64,000 nt of DNA from a virus (Duplodnaviria; Caudoviricetes): the IMG/VR virus record IMGVR_UViG_3300020414_000008, positions 64,001-128,000 of that record. One strand, written 5' to 3'. How positions within the stretch are numbered: the stretch's first letter is position 1; each line of letters begins with the position of its first letter. Below are positions 5,128 through 61,873 of this stretch, piece by piece. Under the pieces are notes generated by a model. The model was not told where the DNA came from and ran no database searches. It saw nothing but the letters and a program-made list of their open reading frames with translations. A program made the position numbers and the translations under genes.

Positions 5128-6048
5128 ATGAGTAATTCACTATGGGTTGAAAAATACAGACCCGATACATTAGAGGGATATGTTGGTAATGAACATATCT
5201 TAGAAAAAGTAAAAATATACATTGAGAATGAGGATGTACCACACTTGTTACTTTATGGAGTAGCAGGTACAGGTAAGACTACCCTCGCAAAGATAATCAC
5301 TAATCAGATTGATTGTGATGTTATGTACATAAACGCCTCTGATGAAAACTCTGTTGACGCAGTTCGTGATAAGATTCGTGGATTCGCATCATCAATGGGT
5401 TTCAGAAAGTGGAAGGTTATCATATTAGATGAAGCAGATTATTTGACACCAAACGCACAAGCAGCACTTAGAAACTTAATGGAAACTTTTTCAAAGTCTA
5501 CAAGATTTATTTTAACTTGTAACTATGTAGAAAAAGTTATTGACCCGATTCAATCTCGTTGTCAGACATTCGCAATAACACCACCTTCAAAGAAGGAAGT
5601 AGCGAAAAGATTGTTTGATATATTAAACGAGGAAGAGGTTAAGTTTCAAAAAGAAGACCTTGCAGTATTAGTGAATGGTGGGTATCCTGACATTCGTAGA
5701 GTTCTAAATGCAGCACAGAGACAAGTTGTCAAAGGTGAATTGAAAATAGATACAACATCTACAGTTCAAGCAAACTATGTTGACAATGTAATTGAAGTGA
5801 TGAAATCAGGTGGTGAGATGAAAAAACAATTCAATCAAATCAGACAGATTATTGCTGATTCAAAAGTGAAAGATTTTCAACCACTATACAGAGCACTATA
5901 TGATGAAGTAGATGAATACGCATCGGGTAAAGTTGGACAGACTATTTTAAACATCGCAGATGGTCAGTACAAAGATTCAATGGTTGTTGATAAAGAAATC
6001 AACATTATGGCGATGATTTTAAATATTTTAGTAACAATAGGAAAGTAG
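5128..6048 (+). CDS. Clamp loader AAA+ subunit (RFC small / gp44-like)
   Basis: LWVEKYRP, Walker A GVAGTGKT, DEAD, SRC motif; probable start ATG 5128. Confidence 0.96.
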   Translation: MSNSLWVEKYRPDTLEGYVGNEHILEKVKIYIENEDVPHLLLYGVAGTGKTTLAKIITNQIDCDVMYINASDENSVDAVRDKIRGFASSMGFRKWKVIILDEADYLTPNAQAALRNLMETFSKSTRFILTCNYVEKVIDPIQSRCQTFAITPPSKKEVAKRLFDILNEEEVKFQKEDLAVLVNGGYPDIRRVLNAAQRQVVKGELKIDTTSTVQANYVDNVIEVMKSGGEMKKQFNQIRQIIADSKVKDFQPLYRALYDEVDEYASGKVGQTILNIADGQYKDSMVVDKEINIMAMILNILVTIGK

Positions 6049-7147: not shown

Positions 7148-7204
7148 TTTAACAATTATTTAACATAAAAGATTTGGTAATTCCAAGTCTTTTTCTTATC
7201 TTTA
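7148..7204 (+). promoter_or_regulatory. Promoter with tandem TTTAACA repeats (TTTAACA-N4-TTTAACA-N7-TTTG-N20-TATCTTTA)
   Basis: One of six copies with identical geometry. Confidence 0.75.
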
Positions 7205-48943: not shown

Positions 48944-49293
48944 AATCAATTAAAAAATTATCTAACGGTGATATCGAAATCACCAACGATAAAGGGTCAA
49001 TTACGGTATCCACAACAAATCCCGTATATGAGGGATTAAGACTTCAATTTAATTCGTTGGGTATAAACACGGTGAATTGGGTCGGGAATCAGAGTAAATA
49101 CAGTCCACTAAGAGAAACCGAAGAAACTCTACTATATGACGTAGAGGAAGGACAAATGAAAATTCCTTTCCCTAACGTGGATTATACGTCTTACCCCAAA
49201 AAAGAACTCGTATTCATTGGTTCAGAAGGACAGTATTGGACACAAAACTCTACTGAACCACCTGTATACTTTAATGAGGAGTGGAACAAATGA
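48934..49293 (+). CDS. Hypothetical protein
   Basis: Coupled ORF. Confidence 0.5.
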   Translation: MEIKSIKKLSNGDIEITNDKGSITVSTTNPVYEGLRLQFNSLGINTVNWVGNQSKYSPLRETEETLLYDVEEGQMKIPFPNVDYTSYPKKELVFIGSEGQYWTQNSTEPPVYFNEEWNK

Positions 49294-49511
49294 GAAAGAT
49301 AACTGTAGACCTACACGGTATAAGGCATGGTAACGTAGAAAAACTCTTAGAAAAACGTCTCCTGAACGGTAAAAAAGACTACCTAAGAACAGAGATAATT
49401 ACAGGAAACTCTGAGAGGATGAGAGAGATAGTACACGACTTCTTAGACGAACACGATTTTAAGTACGTTGTTACAGAGTACAATATGGGTAGAACGGTCA
49501 TCATAGGGTAG
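49290..49511 (+). CDS. Stand-alone Smr-domain protein
   Basis: VDLHG...EIITGNS...N.G. Confidence 0.78.
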   Translation: MRKITVDLHGIRHGNVEKLLEKRLLNGKKDYLRTEIITGNSERMREIVHDFLDEHDFKYVVTEYNMGRTVIIG

Positions 49512-50260
49512 AACAACCCTGAACAACCTCTATAGGTAAGACAAAATAAATCTACCTTAATTCACCCGCCAAGATTCATCCAAGTCTATTTATCCTTATA
49601 TGGTACTAATCAAAGTAATCTTAATGTTCTGCGTATTCATTTTCCTCATGAATCGTTGGTTCAAGTATTTGGACCGTTAAAAAACCCTCAAAAAACCCCC
49701 TTTTATCCCACTTTTTACCACTTTATGGTAAACTCTCACCAAATAATTCCTTAATAAAAGAGAGAAATATTTAATTAGAGAAGCTAAGGCTTCCCTACTT
49801 ATCCAATGAAAAGGGGTCGCTAATACACTTTTACCACAATAAACACAAACACTTTCCTATAAAACACCCATGCAACGAGTTTAACAGTAATAAAAGGGTG
49901 CTCTTGTCCGTGTTTCTGCGTTTTCCAATTTTTTTGCTATAGCGAAACCTTTTGCGCATTGTTAATAACCTGTTGATAACTTTTTTTTAGGTCGTTTTGT
50001 CAGTCTGAGTACCCTTGTAACACGGGTGTAGAGGTGTTACAAACGTAACAACAGAGGGGCGCCGGGGGTTCTGTAGAGGTATTTGTAACACATACCCCGA
50101 AAATGAGTAGTCGCTGAGTAGTGACAGGGTGTCATGTTGATAACTTTGTTGATAAAAAAGTGTTTATTTCCTTGTTTTTTTCATTTATTTTTCGTATATT
50201 AGTGGGGGGCATTGACCTACTTTTCACCACGGATGCGCAATAACCCGACATATATGGGTA
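49512..50260. other. Long non-coding region with paired DnaA-box-like 9-mers and inverted repeats (origin or genome-end candidate)
   Basis: No credible ORF; TGTT(A/G)ATAA pairs at 49960/49971 and 50135/50147; TTGTAACAC/GTGTTACAA inverted repeat 50015-50042; TGACA-N3-TGTCA 50122-50134. Confidence 0.5.
50171..50202 (+). promoter_or_regulatory. Promoter CTTG-N20-TATATTAG
   Basis: Recurrent geometry; no ORF follows directly. Confidence 0.55.
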
Positions 50261-50263
50261 AAA

Positions 50264-50320
50264 TTTAACAATTATTTAACATTGGCGATTTGGAAATGAA
50301 CGCAGAATTCCTTATCTTTA
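50264..50320 (+). promoter_or_regulatory. Promoter with tandem TTTAACA repeats driving the ncRNA candidate
   Basis: TTTAACA at 50264 and 50275, TTTG at 50289, TATCTTTA at 50313. Confidence 0.75.
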
Positions 50321-50326
50321 CTATGT

Positions 50327-50695
50327 AAAGAGAGAGATATATGGGATAACTGTGGTGGAAACCGCGAAGTGAAGTAAAAATAAAATAGGTCAAAACAGCA
50401 AGTACTATACGCAAGTAGGTATATAGAGAGAGAATAGAGTAGTATAGGTATAGGTAGGTACAGCGCATAGATTAACCTGAAACAACCCCGAACCCCGTAA
50501 GTCGTTATAGGCGATGAAAGACACTCGCGCAGGGGGTGGGGGTATTTTCACGGAAACCAAGCGCAGCAGCAGGCATGAACCGCCTGTAGTCCGTCTTGCT
50601 GTCGAGGTCGGCAAAATGACCTTGGGGAAAGTCCCCTCTAAGGTCTGATTTACAGAGGGGCGCTAAAATTCATTTACCTCATTATGGGTATGGAT
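50327..50695 (+). ncRNA. Unnamed structured RNA candidate (about 370 nt)
   Basis: GC-rich ORF-free tract behind a promoter; GNRA-capped hairpins and long-range helices (see findings). Confidence 0.6.
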
Positions 50696-50721
50696 ATTGT
50701 TTAACTATTAAATTTAATTAT

Positions 50722-50904
50722 ATGCTGAAAGGTATCGGAGTGACTTGGACACCTAAATCCAAGAAAGTAAAGTTTGTAAAACAGAATGGTCAAGTGGTTA
50801 ACAGGGATGAATTAGTTGAAGCTCTTAATTACTGTCAATGGAGATTTGGTTATAGACATAAGGATTATTCTCAGGATGGTAGTACTCTTACTGTAGGTAT
50901 GTAG
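50722..50904 (+). CDS. Hypothetical protein
   Basis: ORF with AT-rich leader. Confidence 0.5.
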   Translation: MLKGIGVTWTPKSKKVKFVKQNGQVVNRDELVEALNYCQWRFGYRHKDYSQDGSTLTVGM

Positions 50905-50939
50905 TATTATATCTATACTTATATATAGAAAGGTTTATT

Positions 50940-51863
50940 ATGAGGTATTTTTATTTTAGTTTAGTTTTGTTTATTTCCCTGCTTTTTTCAGGGTGTGGTA
51001 GTCAGTGGTATGTGAGTACTACAAATCATGACCCTATGTATGACAGGTATATAGAGGTAGACAGTTCAGTTAAGATAGATACTATTAATTCTTTATTTCA
51101 TCTCAAGAGAAAACTCCGAACAGACTTCTCTTTCAGATGGGACTTCGCTCAGTATGCGATGACAAGACCCTATTCGTGGTATTTCAACAATCCAAGACTC
51201 GATGGTATATGGAGACCTTACAACAGATTTGATGTATGGTTTAACTCCCATCAGTTTTGGTACGATTGGGCATGGAACTATCCTTGGTATGGATACGACC
51301 ATCCATGGTGGGTTAGAAATCATAGATACTATAATTGGTATTATCCACATCCACAAGGTTGGTATGGTTGGAATCACTATCAGTACAGTTGGTACAATGA
51401 ACCTCTGATAGCAAGTAATAACAATTATTCTTTTGTAGTTGGTAGAAGGGGAAGTAGGTATAATGATTTTCTTAATGGTAACTCTAATATAGAACAAGAT
51501 ACTAATCGAAGAAGAGGTAACAGAGTATATCCTAATAAACCTAATAACAACAATACTATTAACAATGTTATCAGATGGAGTAATGATAATAATATTCGTA
51601 TTAATGTCAACTCAAATCCAAACCGTGTAGATAGTAATAATAATGTTGTTGTCCCAATCAAACCAAATAACAACATCAACAATTGGAATTCCAAACCAAG
51701 AGTACCAAACAACAACTTCAATAACGGAAGACCACCTGTTAATAACTTTAACAGTAACCCACCTGTTAACATCAGAAGTGGTGGTAACGTAGGTGGTAGT
51801 AGTAGAGGAAGTTCGTCAGGCGGTAGTTCTAGCTCATCAGTAGGTAGAAGAGGTGGAAACTAA
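50940..51863 (+). CDS. Bacteroidota-type lipoprotein with W/Y-rich core and N/G/S/R low-complexity tail
   Basis: FSGC lipobox; composition. Confidence 0.75.
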   Translation: MRYFYFSLVLFISLLFSGCGSQWYVSTTNHDPMYDRYIEVDSSVKIDTINSLFHLKRKLRTDFSFRWDFAQYAMTRPYSWYFNNPRLDGIWRPYNRFDVWFNSHQFWYDWAWNYPWYGYDHPWWVRNHRYYNWYYPHPQGWYGWNHYQYSWYNEPLIASNNNYSFVVGRRGSRYNDFLNGNSNIEQDTNRRRGNRVYPNKPNNNNTINNVIRWSNDNNIRINVNSNPNRVDSNNNVVVPIKPNNNINNWNSKPRVPNNNFNNGRPPVNNFNSNPPVNIRSGGNVGGSSRGSSSGGSSSSSVGRRGGN

Positions 51864-51864
51864 T

Positions 51865-51942
51865 TGTTAATAACTTGTTGATAAATTTAACATAAATTTA
51901 ACATTAAACATTTGGAAAAGTCATTTACTTTCACTATCTTTA
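51865..51942 (+). promoter_or_regulatory. DnaA-box-like pair followed by a TTTAACA-repeat promoter
   Basis: TGTTAATAA at 51865, TGTTGATAA at 51876, TTTAACA at 51886 and 51897, TTTG at 51911, TATCTTTA at 51935. Confidence 0.75.
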
Positions 51943-59538: not shown

Positions 59539-59612
59539 GGACCCGTAGCTCAGTTGGATAGAGCATCTGCCTTCTAAGCAGACGGTCACAGGTTCGAATC
59601 CTGTCGGGTTCA
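59539..59612 (+). tRNA. tRNA-Arg(UCU)
   Basis: Acceptor GGACCCG/CGGGTTC, anticodon loop CTTCTAA, TTCGAAT T-loop; CCA not encoded. Confidence 0.96.
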
Positions 59613-59671
59613 CAATTTATTAAATATATTTTAATATTTATATAATAGTTAACTAAATAAAAACAATTGTT

Positions 59672-59941
59672 ATGAGTAAAGTTTCAAGAAGATTATACCA
59701 AGCCGTAGAGGCAAAGTATACAGCAGATATCATGGACGCAAAAGCAAGACTATCAGTCTACTTTGAGAATCCTGTAGCTATTGGGGAACACCCACAACAC
59801 ACAGAAGAAATCGACAAACTTATCGGACAACTTGAAAGTGCAACAGGAAAGTTAGAAACACTTTCTGAGTACTTTGGAAAAGAATACGGTCACGATATCC
59901 CTGTATCTGAATCAGACGAAAAAGAAATCTTAAAAGGATAA
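59672..59941 (+). CDS. Phage protein with PVAIGEHPQ motif
   Basis: Helical hairpin protein; motif recalled from T4-like phages. Confidence 0.7.
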   Translation: MSKVSRRLYQAVEAKYTADIMDAKARLSVYFENPVAIGEHPQHTEEIDKLIGQLESATGKLETLSEYFGKEYGHDIPVSESDEKEILKG

Positions 59942-59948
59942 ATTCGTA

Positions 59949-60022
59949 GGGGATATAGCTCAGATGGCTAGAGCACTACGCTTGCACCGTAGGGGTCGTG
60001 AGTTCGAGTCTCACTATCTCCA
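59949..60022 (+). tRNA. tRNA-Ala(UGC)
   Basis: Acceptor GGGGATA/TATCTCC with G3:U70, anticodon loop CTTGCAC. Confidence 0.96.
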
Positions 60023-60100
60023 CTATGTTTGTTTGTTTTTGTACATACTTATTATTGATATAAGTGTCTATATAAAAACGTTTTAAAAGGAGAAAGTATT

Positions 60101-60730
60101 ATGTCAATCGCAAATCAATTTAAAGGACTACCAATCGAAGAACTAATCGTTGGTCCACTAACAGGTGTGGCAAAAGGTCAGGCGCAACTAAATGATATTA
60201 CTTGGAAGTACATCTCTGAGGTTGCATTTGAGCCACCTTCAGGAAGTAGTACCCATCGTAAATCAAGAAAAATCGATGTTGAACTAAACAGGTATATAAA
60301 GGACTCGGAAACAGGTGAATTAAAGTTACAACAAATTCAATCTATGATTCCTATGTTACCGTTAGTACCACTACCAACATTAGCAGTTACATCTGCAGAT
60401 GTTGATTTTACTATGGAAGTTCATGAATCAACCTTGTCTAAGAATACAAGTGATTCATCATTCGAAACATCAGTTCAGGCTTCAGGTGGATTTTGGGGAG
60501 TTAAGTTTAAAGCCTCTATGACAGGTAAAGTAGCAACTCATAAAGAGAATACAAGAAAAACTGACAACTCAGCTAAGTACAATGTTAAAGTACACGCAGA
60601 ACAACTACCACAAACTGAAGGTATGGGTAAACTAAACGATATGTTACACATGATGATGGAACCAACTGTAGTAGGTATGGAAGACCCAACAACAGGAGTA
60701 GCGACACCATCAACAGGTTCAGCAGGATAG
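60101..60730 (+). CDS. DUF2589-like protein
   Basis: F.GLP..LI.GPL..A..Q..L, P.L.LVP.P.L, F.MEV, TDNSAKY.V.V.A, P.EG..KL.D. Confidence 0.75.
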   Translation: MSIANQFKGLPIEELIVGPLTGVAKGQAQLNDITWKYISEVAFEPPSGSSTHRKSRKIDVELNRYIKDSETGELKLQQIQSMIPMLPLVPLPTLAVTSADVDFTMEVHESTLSKNTSDSSFETSVQASGGFWGVKFKASMTGKVATHKENTRKTDNSAKYNVKVHAEQLPQTEGMGKLNDMLHMMMEPTVVGMEDPTTGVATPSTGSAG

Positions 60731-60741
60731 TCCATAACTAA

Positions 60742-60773
60742 TTTGGAAAATTGAAATATTTTTTGTATATTAG
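60742..60773 (+). promoter_or_regulatory. Promoter TTTG-N20-TATATTAG
   Basis: Recurrent geometry. Confidence 0.7.
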
Positions 60774-60805
60774 TAAGAAGTAAAAAAATAAGTTATAGTT
60801 AAAGC

Positions 60806-61315
60806 ATGGCTAAGGTTAATTTAGAAGAACTACTTGGTGGTCTACAAGAGGCCTCACAAGTAGTTCTTTCTATACAAGAAAGACAACACATCAATACCAT
60901 CTCAAAGTATTTTGATAAAGATGGTACACCAATCACTCAAAAGTTTAGAATCGGTGACAGGGATATAGAGATACCACTCTACATTCTTGCGGACCATTCA
61001 TCTGTTGGGTTAGATAAGTTGGATATTGAGTTCCAAGCAAGACTATTGCCAGGAAATACAACTAAACCATCAGCACTCAAAAAGAATTTATTACCTATCT
61101 TTCAAAGACAAAAACAAAAAGGTAATGACAAGTACAAACATCAGATTAGTAATATCTCAGTTGATGGTAACAGTCCTGACAAGGAAGGTGTTGCTAAAAT
61201 CAGTATACATTTTAAGAAAGATAATAAACCCGAGGCGGTTTCTCGATTAGTAGATATGTTAATAGCGAAAATGGATGACCCGACTCATAAAGTTATAGAG
61301 AATGGCGATTCCTGA
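60806..61315 (+). CDS. Second, shorter DUF2589-like protein
   Basis: LEELL.GLQ.A, IPLY.L...S..LD.L.IEF, I.F.....PEA.SRLVD. Confidence 0.6.
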   Translation: MAKVNLEELLGGLQEASQVVLSIQERQHINTISKYFDKDGTPITQKFRIGDRDIEIPLYILADHSSVGLDKLDIEFQARLLPGNTTKPSALKKNLLPIFQRQKQKGNDKYKHQISNISVDGNSPDKEGVAKISIHFKKDNKPEAVSRLVDMLIAKMDDPTHKVIENGDS

Positions 61316-61583
61316 GTTAGAATTACCAAATAGTAAGAAAGGGAAACCTATGGAAAAAGAGCAAGATACTACTAACACAAAGGTAAGTAGTAACGGTAAA
61401 CAAAGATTACGAATTAGTATGTTTGTAATCTCATGTTTTGCTTTTACATTGGTTTGGATATTCTTATCAATGCACTTTGACAAAGGTCTTAACGCAGAAT
61501 GGAAAGAACTTCTATTATTGTTGTTAGGTGCATTAATCGGAAACTTCAACCAAGTAATTAATTATTGGTTCAAAGATAAGTAG
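61302..61583 (+). CDS. Two-TM membrane protein
   Basis: WKELLLLLLGALIG...VINYWF. Confidence 0.65.
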   Translation: MAIPELELPNSKKGKPMEKEQDTTNTKVSSNGKQRLRISMFVISCFAFTLVWIFLSMHFDKGLNAEWKELLLLLLGALIGNFNQVINYWFKDK

Positions 61584-61584
61584 T

Positions 61585-61788
61585 ATGCCTTTACCATGTC
61601 CGAGTTGTACTACACCGTTAGATTTAACTTTAGAATTTATTCTAAAGAATCCTGTATCGGTTTGTCCACATTGTCAAACTGTAATGAACTTCAATGTAGA
61701 TAAAAGTATACAGAAAGAGTATAATCAGGCGTTACAAAACATAGAGGACGTGAAAAAGAAATACAGTAAGATAGCTAAGTTTAAATAA
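61585..61788 (+). CDS. Zinc-ribbon protein
   Basis: CPSC...CPHC plus C-terminal helix. Confidence 0.7.
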   Translation: MPLPCPSCTTPLDLTLEFILKNPVSVCPHCQTVMNFNVDKSIQKEYNQALQNIEDVKKKYSKIAKFK

Positions 61789-61789
61789 T

Positions 61790-61861
61790 GCTCGGTTCGT
61801 CTAACGGTTAGGACTTCAGGTTTTCATCCTGGCAATAGGGGTTCGATTCCCCTACCGAGTA
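61790..61861 (+). tRNA. tRNA-Glu(UUC)
   Basis: Acceptor GCTCGGT/ACCGAGT, anticodon loop TTTTCAT, TTCGATT T-loop. Confidence 0.95.
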
Positions 61862-61873
61862 CAAATAAATGTT

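Follow-up and report, generated by a model that had tools for sequence, protein, structure and literature searches.

A candidate non-coding RNA gene behind an early-type promoter in a clade of uncultured marine phages

Only a few phage non-coding RNAs have, to our knowledge, an assigned function. Phage T4 encodes two stable RNAs of unknown function, rnaC (species 1, 139 nt) and rnaD (species 2, 119 nt), directly beside its tRNA-Arg gene, and as far as we know these neighbours of the tRNA genes are still unexplained. GOLLD, ROOL and other large bacterial and phage non-coding RNAs in Rfam, which were discovered through comparative genomics in phage or metagenome sequence, likewise have no known function and measure a few hundred nucleotides, are characterized by dense covariation over many helices. 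The element described here, roughly 320 conserved non-coding bases behind a promoter in a marine phage genome, resembles the latter in source, size and lack of coding content, but possesses three short covarying hairpins and has no Rfam match. By our comparison its nearest known parallel would be the T4 pair: the two phages share a T4-type DNA polymerase and, in three of the four types of the element (B, C and D, defined below), the element is also found by a tRNA-Arg gene. There is, however, no homology between them, since model R1, which scores the relatives of the element at 148-167 bits and detects no second copy above 11 bits, finds nothing in the T4 tRNA region. Furthermore, the element is 2-3 times longer than rnaC and rnaD, has its own promoter, lies upstream rather than downstream of the tRNAs, and lacks the tRNA-like T-arm and 3' end of rnaC, its 3' hairpin being a 4-bp stem with a 5-nt loop.

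The window, by which we mean the whole 64,000-nt stretch of DNA analysed (bases 64001-128000 of a 180.8-kb IMG/VR record with a completeness estimate of 94%), carries all of its long ORFs on the + strand. The DNA polymerase of the phage shares 50% identity with its counterpart in Microcystis phage Mel-JY01 and about 33% with those of T4-like cyanophages. From the stop of a 76-aa Smr-like ORF (49511) to the start of a 60-aa ORF (50722) there is no + strand ORF of at least 45 aa and no ORF longer than 69 aa on either strand, and the candidate RNA occupies the last third of this interval. Unlike T4 rnaC and rnaD, the window copy is not beside tRNAs: the tRNA genes of the window lie at 59539-61862, away from the element. 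Between 50327 and 50721 the sole + strand ORF of at least 30 aa encodes 44 residues (50514-50648), which bears out the original prediction of some 400 nt without a + strand ORF, given one short ORF and no conserved frame. Indeed, no reading frame is open across the homologues, and every frame of the 3' core of the element contains stops in several types. A small protein-coding gene in the 3' core was accordingly rejected, as no frame is kept and the 44-aa ORF starts in a module specific to type A. The predicted rise in G+C content was likewise recovered, with 0.49-0.51 at 50400-50700 versus 0.29-0.38 in the flanks.

Several features of the adjoining region deserve mention in their own right. 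The 76-aa ORF (49281-49511, + strand), the upstream neighbour, shows a sub-threshold match to the Smr domain (20.1 bits, cut-off 25.7) and adjoins the non-coding region in all types checked; its small, nuclease-like product could be an actor on the RNA. A 26-aa mini-ORF on the + strand (49600-49680), below our ORF cut-off, encodes a hydrophobic peptide, MVLIKVILMFCVFIFLMNRWFKYLDR. Every relative examined preserves it at the protein level, following the pattern ...F(I/L/V)MNR.F..LD(K/R), and it is probably a real small membrane protein; the true non-coding region is therefore likely to be shorter than it appears, and the part that encloses the element spans about 1 kb (49681-50721). At 49678-49755 the window is 95% identical to L122, a relative which is otherwise diverged. 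The genome as a whole has a positive GC skew; the block at 49451-49950 has the most negative value of the 180-kb genome (-0.35, the rest being positive) and could correspond to a minus-strand transcript or another special element.

A full TTTAACA-repeat promoter had been predicted ahead of the stretch and is indeed there, consisting of a doubled TTTAACA upstream element (50264-50281, + strand) followed by a core promoter, TTTGG-N19-TATCTTTA (50289-50320, + strand). Six such doubled sites occur in the window against 0.04 expected, and the core layout is found in identical form at 7173 and 51911. Among the relatives, the doubled element is kept in L119-L121 and replaced in L122; the core promoter is kept in all of them and repeated before their tRNA genes. 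This layout appears to be Bacteroidota-like (-33/-7), with a transcription start inferred near 50326-50330, and it is from the promoter shape alone that the host would be assigned to the Bacteroidota. Farther upstream, the motif TGTTRATAAC occurs five times in the window (0.93 expected), always in upstream clusters near TTTAACA-type promoters (49960-49980, 50135-50154 and 51737-51874). The second of these clusters, upstream of the element promoter on the + strand, holds TGTTGATAAC-type repeats, and two to four copies of the motif stand at corresponding places ahead of the element in the relatives; possibly, a transcription regulator binds to it. At 50010-50091, TTGTAACAC/GTGTTACAA is present three times in an inverted-repeat arrangement (arms 50010-50023/50034-50047 and 50034-50043/50082-50091), where they flank ACAGAGGGGCGC, a 12-mer found again at 50652 within the element. 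Direct repeats shared by the element and the upstream non-coding block were considered and discarded (E-values of 4e-4 to 0.1, partly coding, covariation inconsistent).

Homologues of the element were retrieved from IMG/VR and marine metagenome contigs at 26 loci, representing 19 distinct sequences, always on the gene strand, in a constant neighbourhood and position, and with a single copy per locus and per genome. We distinguish four types: A (window, L158, L119, L169, L170 and L162), B (L120, L121 and L161), C (L122, L173 and L159) and D (L155, L163, L156, L154, L157, L165 and L174). Some relatives are very close to each other (window and L158, L119 and L169). A search of IMG/VR with the 14-mer TGGGGAAAGTCCCC gave mostly chance matches and one true relative, 83% identical across the whole non-coding region. 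The downstream 307-aa protein as query led to 31 loci, of which four (L119-L122) carry the element, and patterns built on the invariant blocks added four further IMG/VR records and 16 marine metagenome contigs. Neither nhmmer nor a covariance model detected a homologue in the distant phages which carry the 307-aa neighbour (L123-L148); a large 'gap' in L141 proved to be a minus-strand gene. The upstream 119-aa protein yielded no new useful locus, and blastn of 49500-51000 against 50,697 records of cultured phages gave no match. In the 185,579 species genomes of GTDB the element pattern produced one chance match only, within a Chloroflexota repeat. Across the collections searched, the element occurs in a single clade of uncultured marine phages only; their genomes measure about 175-180 kb, carry all genes on one strand and encode a T4-type DNA polymerase.

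No known RNA family accounts for the stretch. At gathering thresholds, three tRNAs are the only Rfam 15 matches in the window, and the stretch itself has none, in agreement with the original impression that it is no recognisable tRNA, tmRNA, RNase P or intron. Permissive E-values brought up rliE (18.8 bits, where 90 are required) and RNase_MRP (9.6 bits, where 50 are required) in the region, and the relatives of types C and D gave unrelated weak matches only.

Alignment of the homologues resolves the element into parts that evolve very differently. The 5' leader (50327-50368, + strand) is 40-70 nt long and different in every type. Its GTGGT-GGAA-ACCGC hairpin (50352-50365), one of the pairings noted originally, exists in the window, but is replaced in the closest relative, L119, where the leader has a 23-nt insertion. 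The A-rich block that follows, GUGAAGUAAAAAUAAAAUAGGUC (50369-50391, + strand), is near-invariant in 14 aligned sequences. Next comes a fast-evolving, purine-rich arm with AGGUA and GAGAGA repeats (50392-50483, + strand), which has sustained indels of 12 to about 110 nt as well as replaced patches between otherwise identical sequences (window versus L158). The GC-rich insertion of about 110 nt in type C (about 5115-5205 in L122, and the corresponding stretch of L159) is full of CCAG/CTGG/GGCC words such as GCCCAG, CCTGG and CTGGC. An exact 16-nt direct repeat, AACAGCAAGTACTATA, links window positions 50394-50409 with genome positions 154357-154372, which are outside the window (E about 0.01); L170 and L162 have lost a 12-nt piece, AACAGCAAGTAC, that makes up most of the window copy.

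The middle of the element (50484-50552, + strand) is a terminator-like hairpin module, ACCCCgaACCCC ... GGGGGUGGGGGU, followed by AUUUUC, and a consensus scan flagged terminator-like sites at 50522-50540. In type A the stem comprises 5+5 bp of C-run and G-run before AUUUUC, whereas types B-D have a different hairpin apex, retain the G-run and UAUUUUC, and offer beside the U-run only ACCC/GGGU (4 bp); in L170 and L162 the U-run is down to UUU. The type A apex is 83-85% identical to a hairpin with U7 that follows an ORF in L120 (7884-7945) and to a second copy in L121 (5816-5877). Measuring about 65 nt, of which 35 form a conserved apex (GUAAGUC.UUAUAGG.GAUGAAAGA.ACUCG), the hairpin recurs at unrelated positions in the window (50484-50548), L120 and L121, with weak matches in L155 (707-763) and L156 (3753-3808; E-values of 5e-4 to 3e-3), and may be a mobile or reused terminator module.

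Beyond this module lies the conserved 3' core (50531-50682, + strand), a domain of about 150 nt which aligns across types. It contains the invariant blocks GGGUAUUU, CAGCA, GCCUGU, GGUCGG and GAAAGUCCCCUCU, an invariance that is partly by construction, as three of the blocks stood in the search patterns. The same applies to the 13-nt GAAAGUCCCCUCU itself (50627-50639, + strand), identical in all 19 distinct sequences, AAAGTCCCCTC(T) having been among those patterns. The 3' tail, AUUUACCUCAU (50672-50682, + strand), could act as a closing strand, and the element ends there or shortly before: L158, L170 and L162 have a different tail from about 50669 on, and in L161 the next promoter follows directly after the tail. 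No clear terminator marks the 3' end. The window is 60-65% identical to types B, C and D over the core. In the adjacent genes for the 60-aa and Smr-like proteins, third codon positions are 36-47% identical, as compared with 57-72% for the first and second. Core conservation is therefore at the level of first and second codon positions and well above that of third positions, from which we conclude that the core is under purifying selection and, judging from its frames, non-coding.

The evidence for structure is more limited than the original prediction of a large, heavily paired and switchable fold would suggest. Folding of 50327-50695 (+ strand) gives a minimum free energy of -97 kcal/mol, where shuffled sequences reach -92.4 +/- 5.7 (z = -0.81); the 3' core alone gives z about 0 in three types, and z ranges from -3.8 to +1.7 in nine full-length homologues, the strongest values coming from a lineage-specific GC-rich insertion. 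The pairings originally read by eye do exist where they were placed, ACCCC..ACCCC being off by one base, but most belong to a single lineage. Only type A has the long-range ACAGCAAG/CTTGCTGT pairing and AGGTCA/TGACCT, and there L170 and L162 have lost the ACAGCAAG arm; AGCGC/GCGCT fails in types B-D, and the alternative fold via 50212/50386 involves a stretch unconserved even in L119. With energies close to those of shuffled sequences, helices mostly lineage-specific and covariation in three short hairpins, the large switchable fold is not supported.

What remains is a smaller set of helices. RNAalifold predicted 24 pairs from 13 core sequences, arranged in a long-range helix, a CAG..CUG hairpin and the hairpins GUCG-AGGU-CGGC (50601-50612, + strand) and UCUG-AUUUA-CAGA (50644-50656, + strand); 98.4% of the cells in this structure pair, a share that drops to 46-62% if the partners are shifted by 1-3 columns. 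Five core pairs are compensatory, with both sides changed; all five separate type A from the rest, and they may therefore reflect a single event. The first of the two named hairpins is ACCG-GGGU-CGGU in types B-D, where one pair differs in both partners and another shows a G-C/G-U change. The second, CAGU-AUUCU-ACUG in these types, has all four pairs changed on both sides and is the only helix shared in base-pair probabilities averaged across homologues. An apical hairpin before the G-run also covaries within types B and C (GGCGAC/GUCGCC, CCGGC/GCCGG, GCCGAC/GUCGGC). Of the three short hairpins with compensatory changes, two vary at a single lineage split. Several pairs alternate between G-U and G-C or between G-U and A-U, which is compatible with the + strand alone, as such pairs would be mismatched on the opposite strand. 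A scan of all column pairs returned about ten four-pair stacks with at least two varying pairs, several of them mutually exclusive, where we estimate that roughly five would be expected by chance with two clades.

The longest helix of the fold, between the G-runs and UUUU at 50533-50548 (+ strand; RNAalifold helices 1 and 2) and 50627-50639 (G-run/GAAAGUCCCC), is paired in 96-97% of cells and never varies, hence shows no compensatory change; in L170 and L162 it loses two pairs without compensation. A helix between the A-rich 5' block and the 3' tail is paired in 81% of cells, and closing 5'/3' helices were set aside as unconvincing on that figure. The search for homologues and covariation thus succeeded in its first part, with 26 loci, and less so in its second, with three short hairpins; as all homologues come from one narrow clade, covariation has little power here. 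Nevertheless, the strand-specific G-U alternations and the covarying apical hairpin suggest that the element probably works as an RNA with a few real helices, while an ornate fold is not supported.

The neighbourhood of the element differs between types. In types B, C and D, TGTTAATAAC repeats come next, then another copy of the promoter and the genes for tRNA-Arg(UCU), tRNA-Met and tRNA-Leu, tRNA-Arg being located 80-430 nt downstream; L155 has an additional inserted ORF of 65 aa. Among the type A loci searched (window, L119, L164 and L170) there is no tRNA in the locus, and in the window the element runs into the 60-aa ORF at 50722 with no promoter between them. In L120, an insert of about 180 nt between tRNA-Arg and tRNA-Met (5274-5451) contains a T-arm-like GGTTCGATTCCTACC, is not called by ARAGORN and may be a decayed tRNA gene.

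Taken together, we consider it likely that the stretch acts as RNA, either free or as a leader. Our preferred reading, to which we would assign a probability of about 0.5, is that it is the gene for an early-expressed, stand-alone non-coding RNA of a previously undescribed family. The original alternative of a phage non-coding RNA or large switchable leader is hence kept as regards 'phage ncRNA or leader', given the 26 loci and the selected 3' half, and is unsupported as regards the large switchable fold. Speaking for an RNA gene are a promoter of a recurrent class with no conserved ORF behind it, the 19 distinct sequences with one copy at each locus, the five double-sided pair changes, the 98.4% of paired cells, the strand-specific alternations, and the position directly upstream of a promoter and tRNA-Arg(UCU)/Met/Leu in types B, C and D. 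On the other side, the folding energy is unremarkable, the compensatory pairs trace to one split while a few 4-bp helices are expected by chance, the longest helix is invariant or weakened, the closing helix reaches only 81%, and there is no clear 3' terminator. In addition, type A is devoid of the tRNA neighbourhood, and in the window the stretch may simply be the 5' UTR of the 60-aa ORF.

Under this reading, the strong early-type promoter at 50264-50320 would start transcription near 50327 and give rise to a transcript composed of the parts defined by comparison, namely a disposable leader, the A-rich block, the purine-rich arm and the selected core of about 150 nt. In the core, the invariant GAAAGUCCCCUCU lies about 80 nt downstream of the G-run and UAUUUUC and is able to pair with them; the resulting long-range helix would enclose two small hairpins and be followed by a third. 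Our committed guess is a stable small RNA acting in trans, whose invariant single-stranded and helix-flanking blocks offer a protein or another RNA a platform for binding. It would, in most relatives, be made together with the adjacent tRNA cluster and released by tRNA processing, as are rnaC and rnaD of T4. A bolder version, which we regard as a long shot, makes the RNA the representative of a trans-acting class that reprograms host translation or tRNA handling early in infection, or else a small ribozyme acting on the neighbouring tRNA transcripts. In the former case, the invariant pyrimidine block GUCCCCUCU could, for instance, mimic the anti-Shine-Dalgarno end of 16S rRNA and the many AGGU/GAGG repeats Shine-Dalgarno sites, in conjunction with the phage's own bS21 and tRNA set. 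Complementarity to antisense targets in the phage's own genome does not exceed 12 nt, which is the chance level.

The most serious competitor of a stand-alone RNA gene, though clearly less probable, is a cis-acting leader in which the terminator-like hairpin and U-tract (50484-50552) set read-through or processing into the early genes and tRNAs. Attenuation or processive antitermination would operate through alternative pairings of the G-run and U-tract with upstream C-runs, upstream GGGAAGU (types B and D) or downstream GAAAGUCCCCUCU. Such competing complementary segments do exist, the consensus scan marks sites at 50522-50540, the type A apex is homologous to the L120 hairpin with its U7 behind an ORF, and the window element directly precedes an ORF without an intervening promoter. 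In having a G+C-rich hairpin and U-run in its middle, related to the U7 hairpin of L120, the element resembles intrinsic terminators and attenuator leaders. The main objection lies in the distribution of conservation: the sensor-side part upstream of the terminator is the least conserved, whereas the most conserved 130 nt come after the U-run and so cannot influence termination. Moreover, the U-tract amounts to four U (three in L170 and L162), the hairpin beside it is poor in types B-D (4 bp, ACCC/GGGU), and a full promoter after the element in these types makes the downstream genes independent of read-through.

Improbable in our estimation is a function at the level of DNA, either as a transcription-primed replication origin or as a set of regulator or alternative-promoter sites. 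T4 origins prime replication with promoter transcripts, and the ingredients for an origin can be listed here too: an A+T-rich stretch, sites in several copies, and a promoter whose G-rich transcript has a G5-N-G5-T run favouring an R-loop. The non-coding region of about 1 kb does hold repeated TGTTRATAAC and TTGTAACAC and is A+T-rich at 50155-50200, and the block of most negative GC skew lies just upstream. Yet these repeated motifs do not fall within the conserved 3' core, the genome's cumulative GC skew does not turn at the element, and in the core compensatory changes keep hairpins while the sequence differs, which points to a nucleic-acid fold and not a protein site; the strand-specific G-U alternations also speak against it.

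That the stretch has no function of its own, being intergenic DNA similar through recent common descent or recombination, appears very unlikely. The closeness of some relatives (window/L158, L119/L169) and the mosaic patches, which suggest frequent recombination, would fit this explanation; flanking third positions, however, are near saturation (0.36-0.47), while the 3' core keeps 60-65% identity and long invariant blocks.

Finally, that the stretch is a diverged or rearranged form of a known catalytic or housekeeping RNA, RNase P/MRP in particular, is scarcely credible: models of bacterial and archaeal RNase P match neither the window nor types C and D, and an RNase P-like RNA is nearly excluded by these failures, by a helix partner on the wrong side and by the lack of CR-V. 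What the two have in common is a 9-nt GGAAAGUCC block after a hairpin (GGGGAAAGUCCCC beside a hairpin in the element) and the vicinity of tRNA genes. The RNase_MRP match (9.6 bits, E = 4.2, 50602-50716) aligns a P3-like hairpin and the GGAAAGUCC block, with ACAGA following at 50652 in the window. It falls far short, however, of the 50-bit gathering threshold, does not recur in types C and D, and covers only model positions 22-210, skipping stretches of 27-49 nt. ACAGA is the arm of a hairpin which is CAGU/ACUG in the other types, and is thus no conserved CR-V, and GAAAGU pairs upstream with AUUUUC, whereas P4 needs a CR-V downstream of the GGAAAGUCC CR-I; elements of a specificity domain were not found in the stretch.

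The family is small and well delimited, by an invariant 13-nt block and a core of 150 nt. Should the element prove to be only a leader, it would still mark the main early promoter region of this group of phages. If it is the RNA gene that we favour, a second, unrelated and selected RNA heading the tRNA cluster of abundant marine phages would offer a comparative handle on the stable RNAs of T4.
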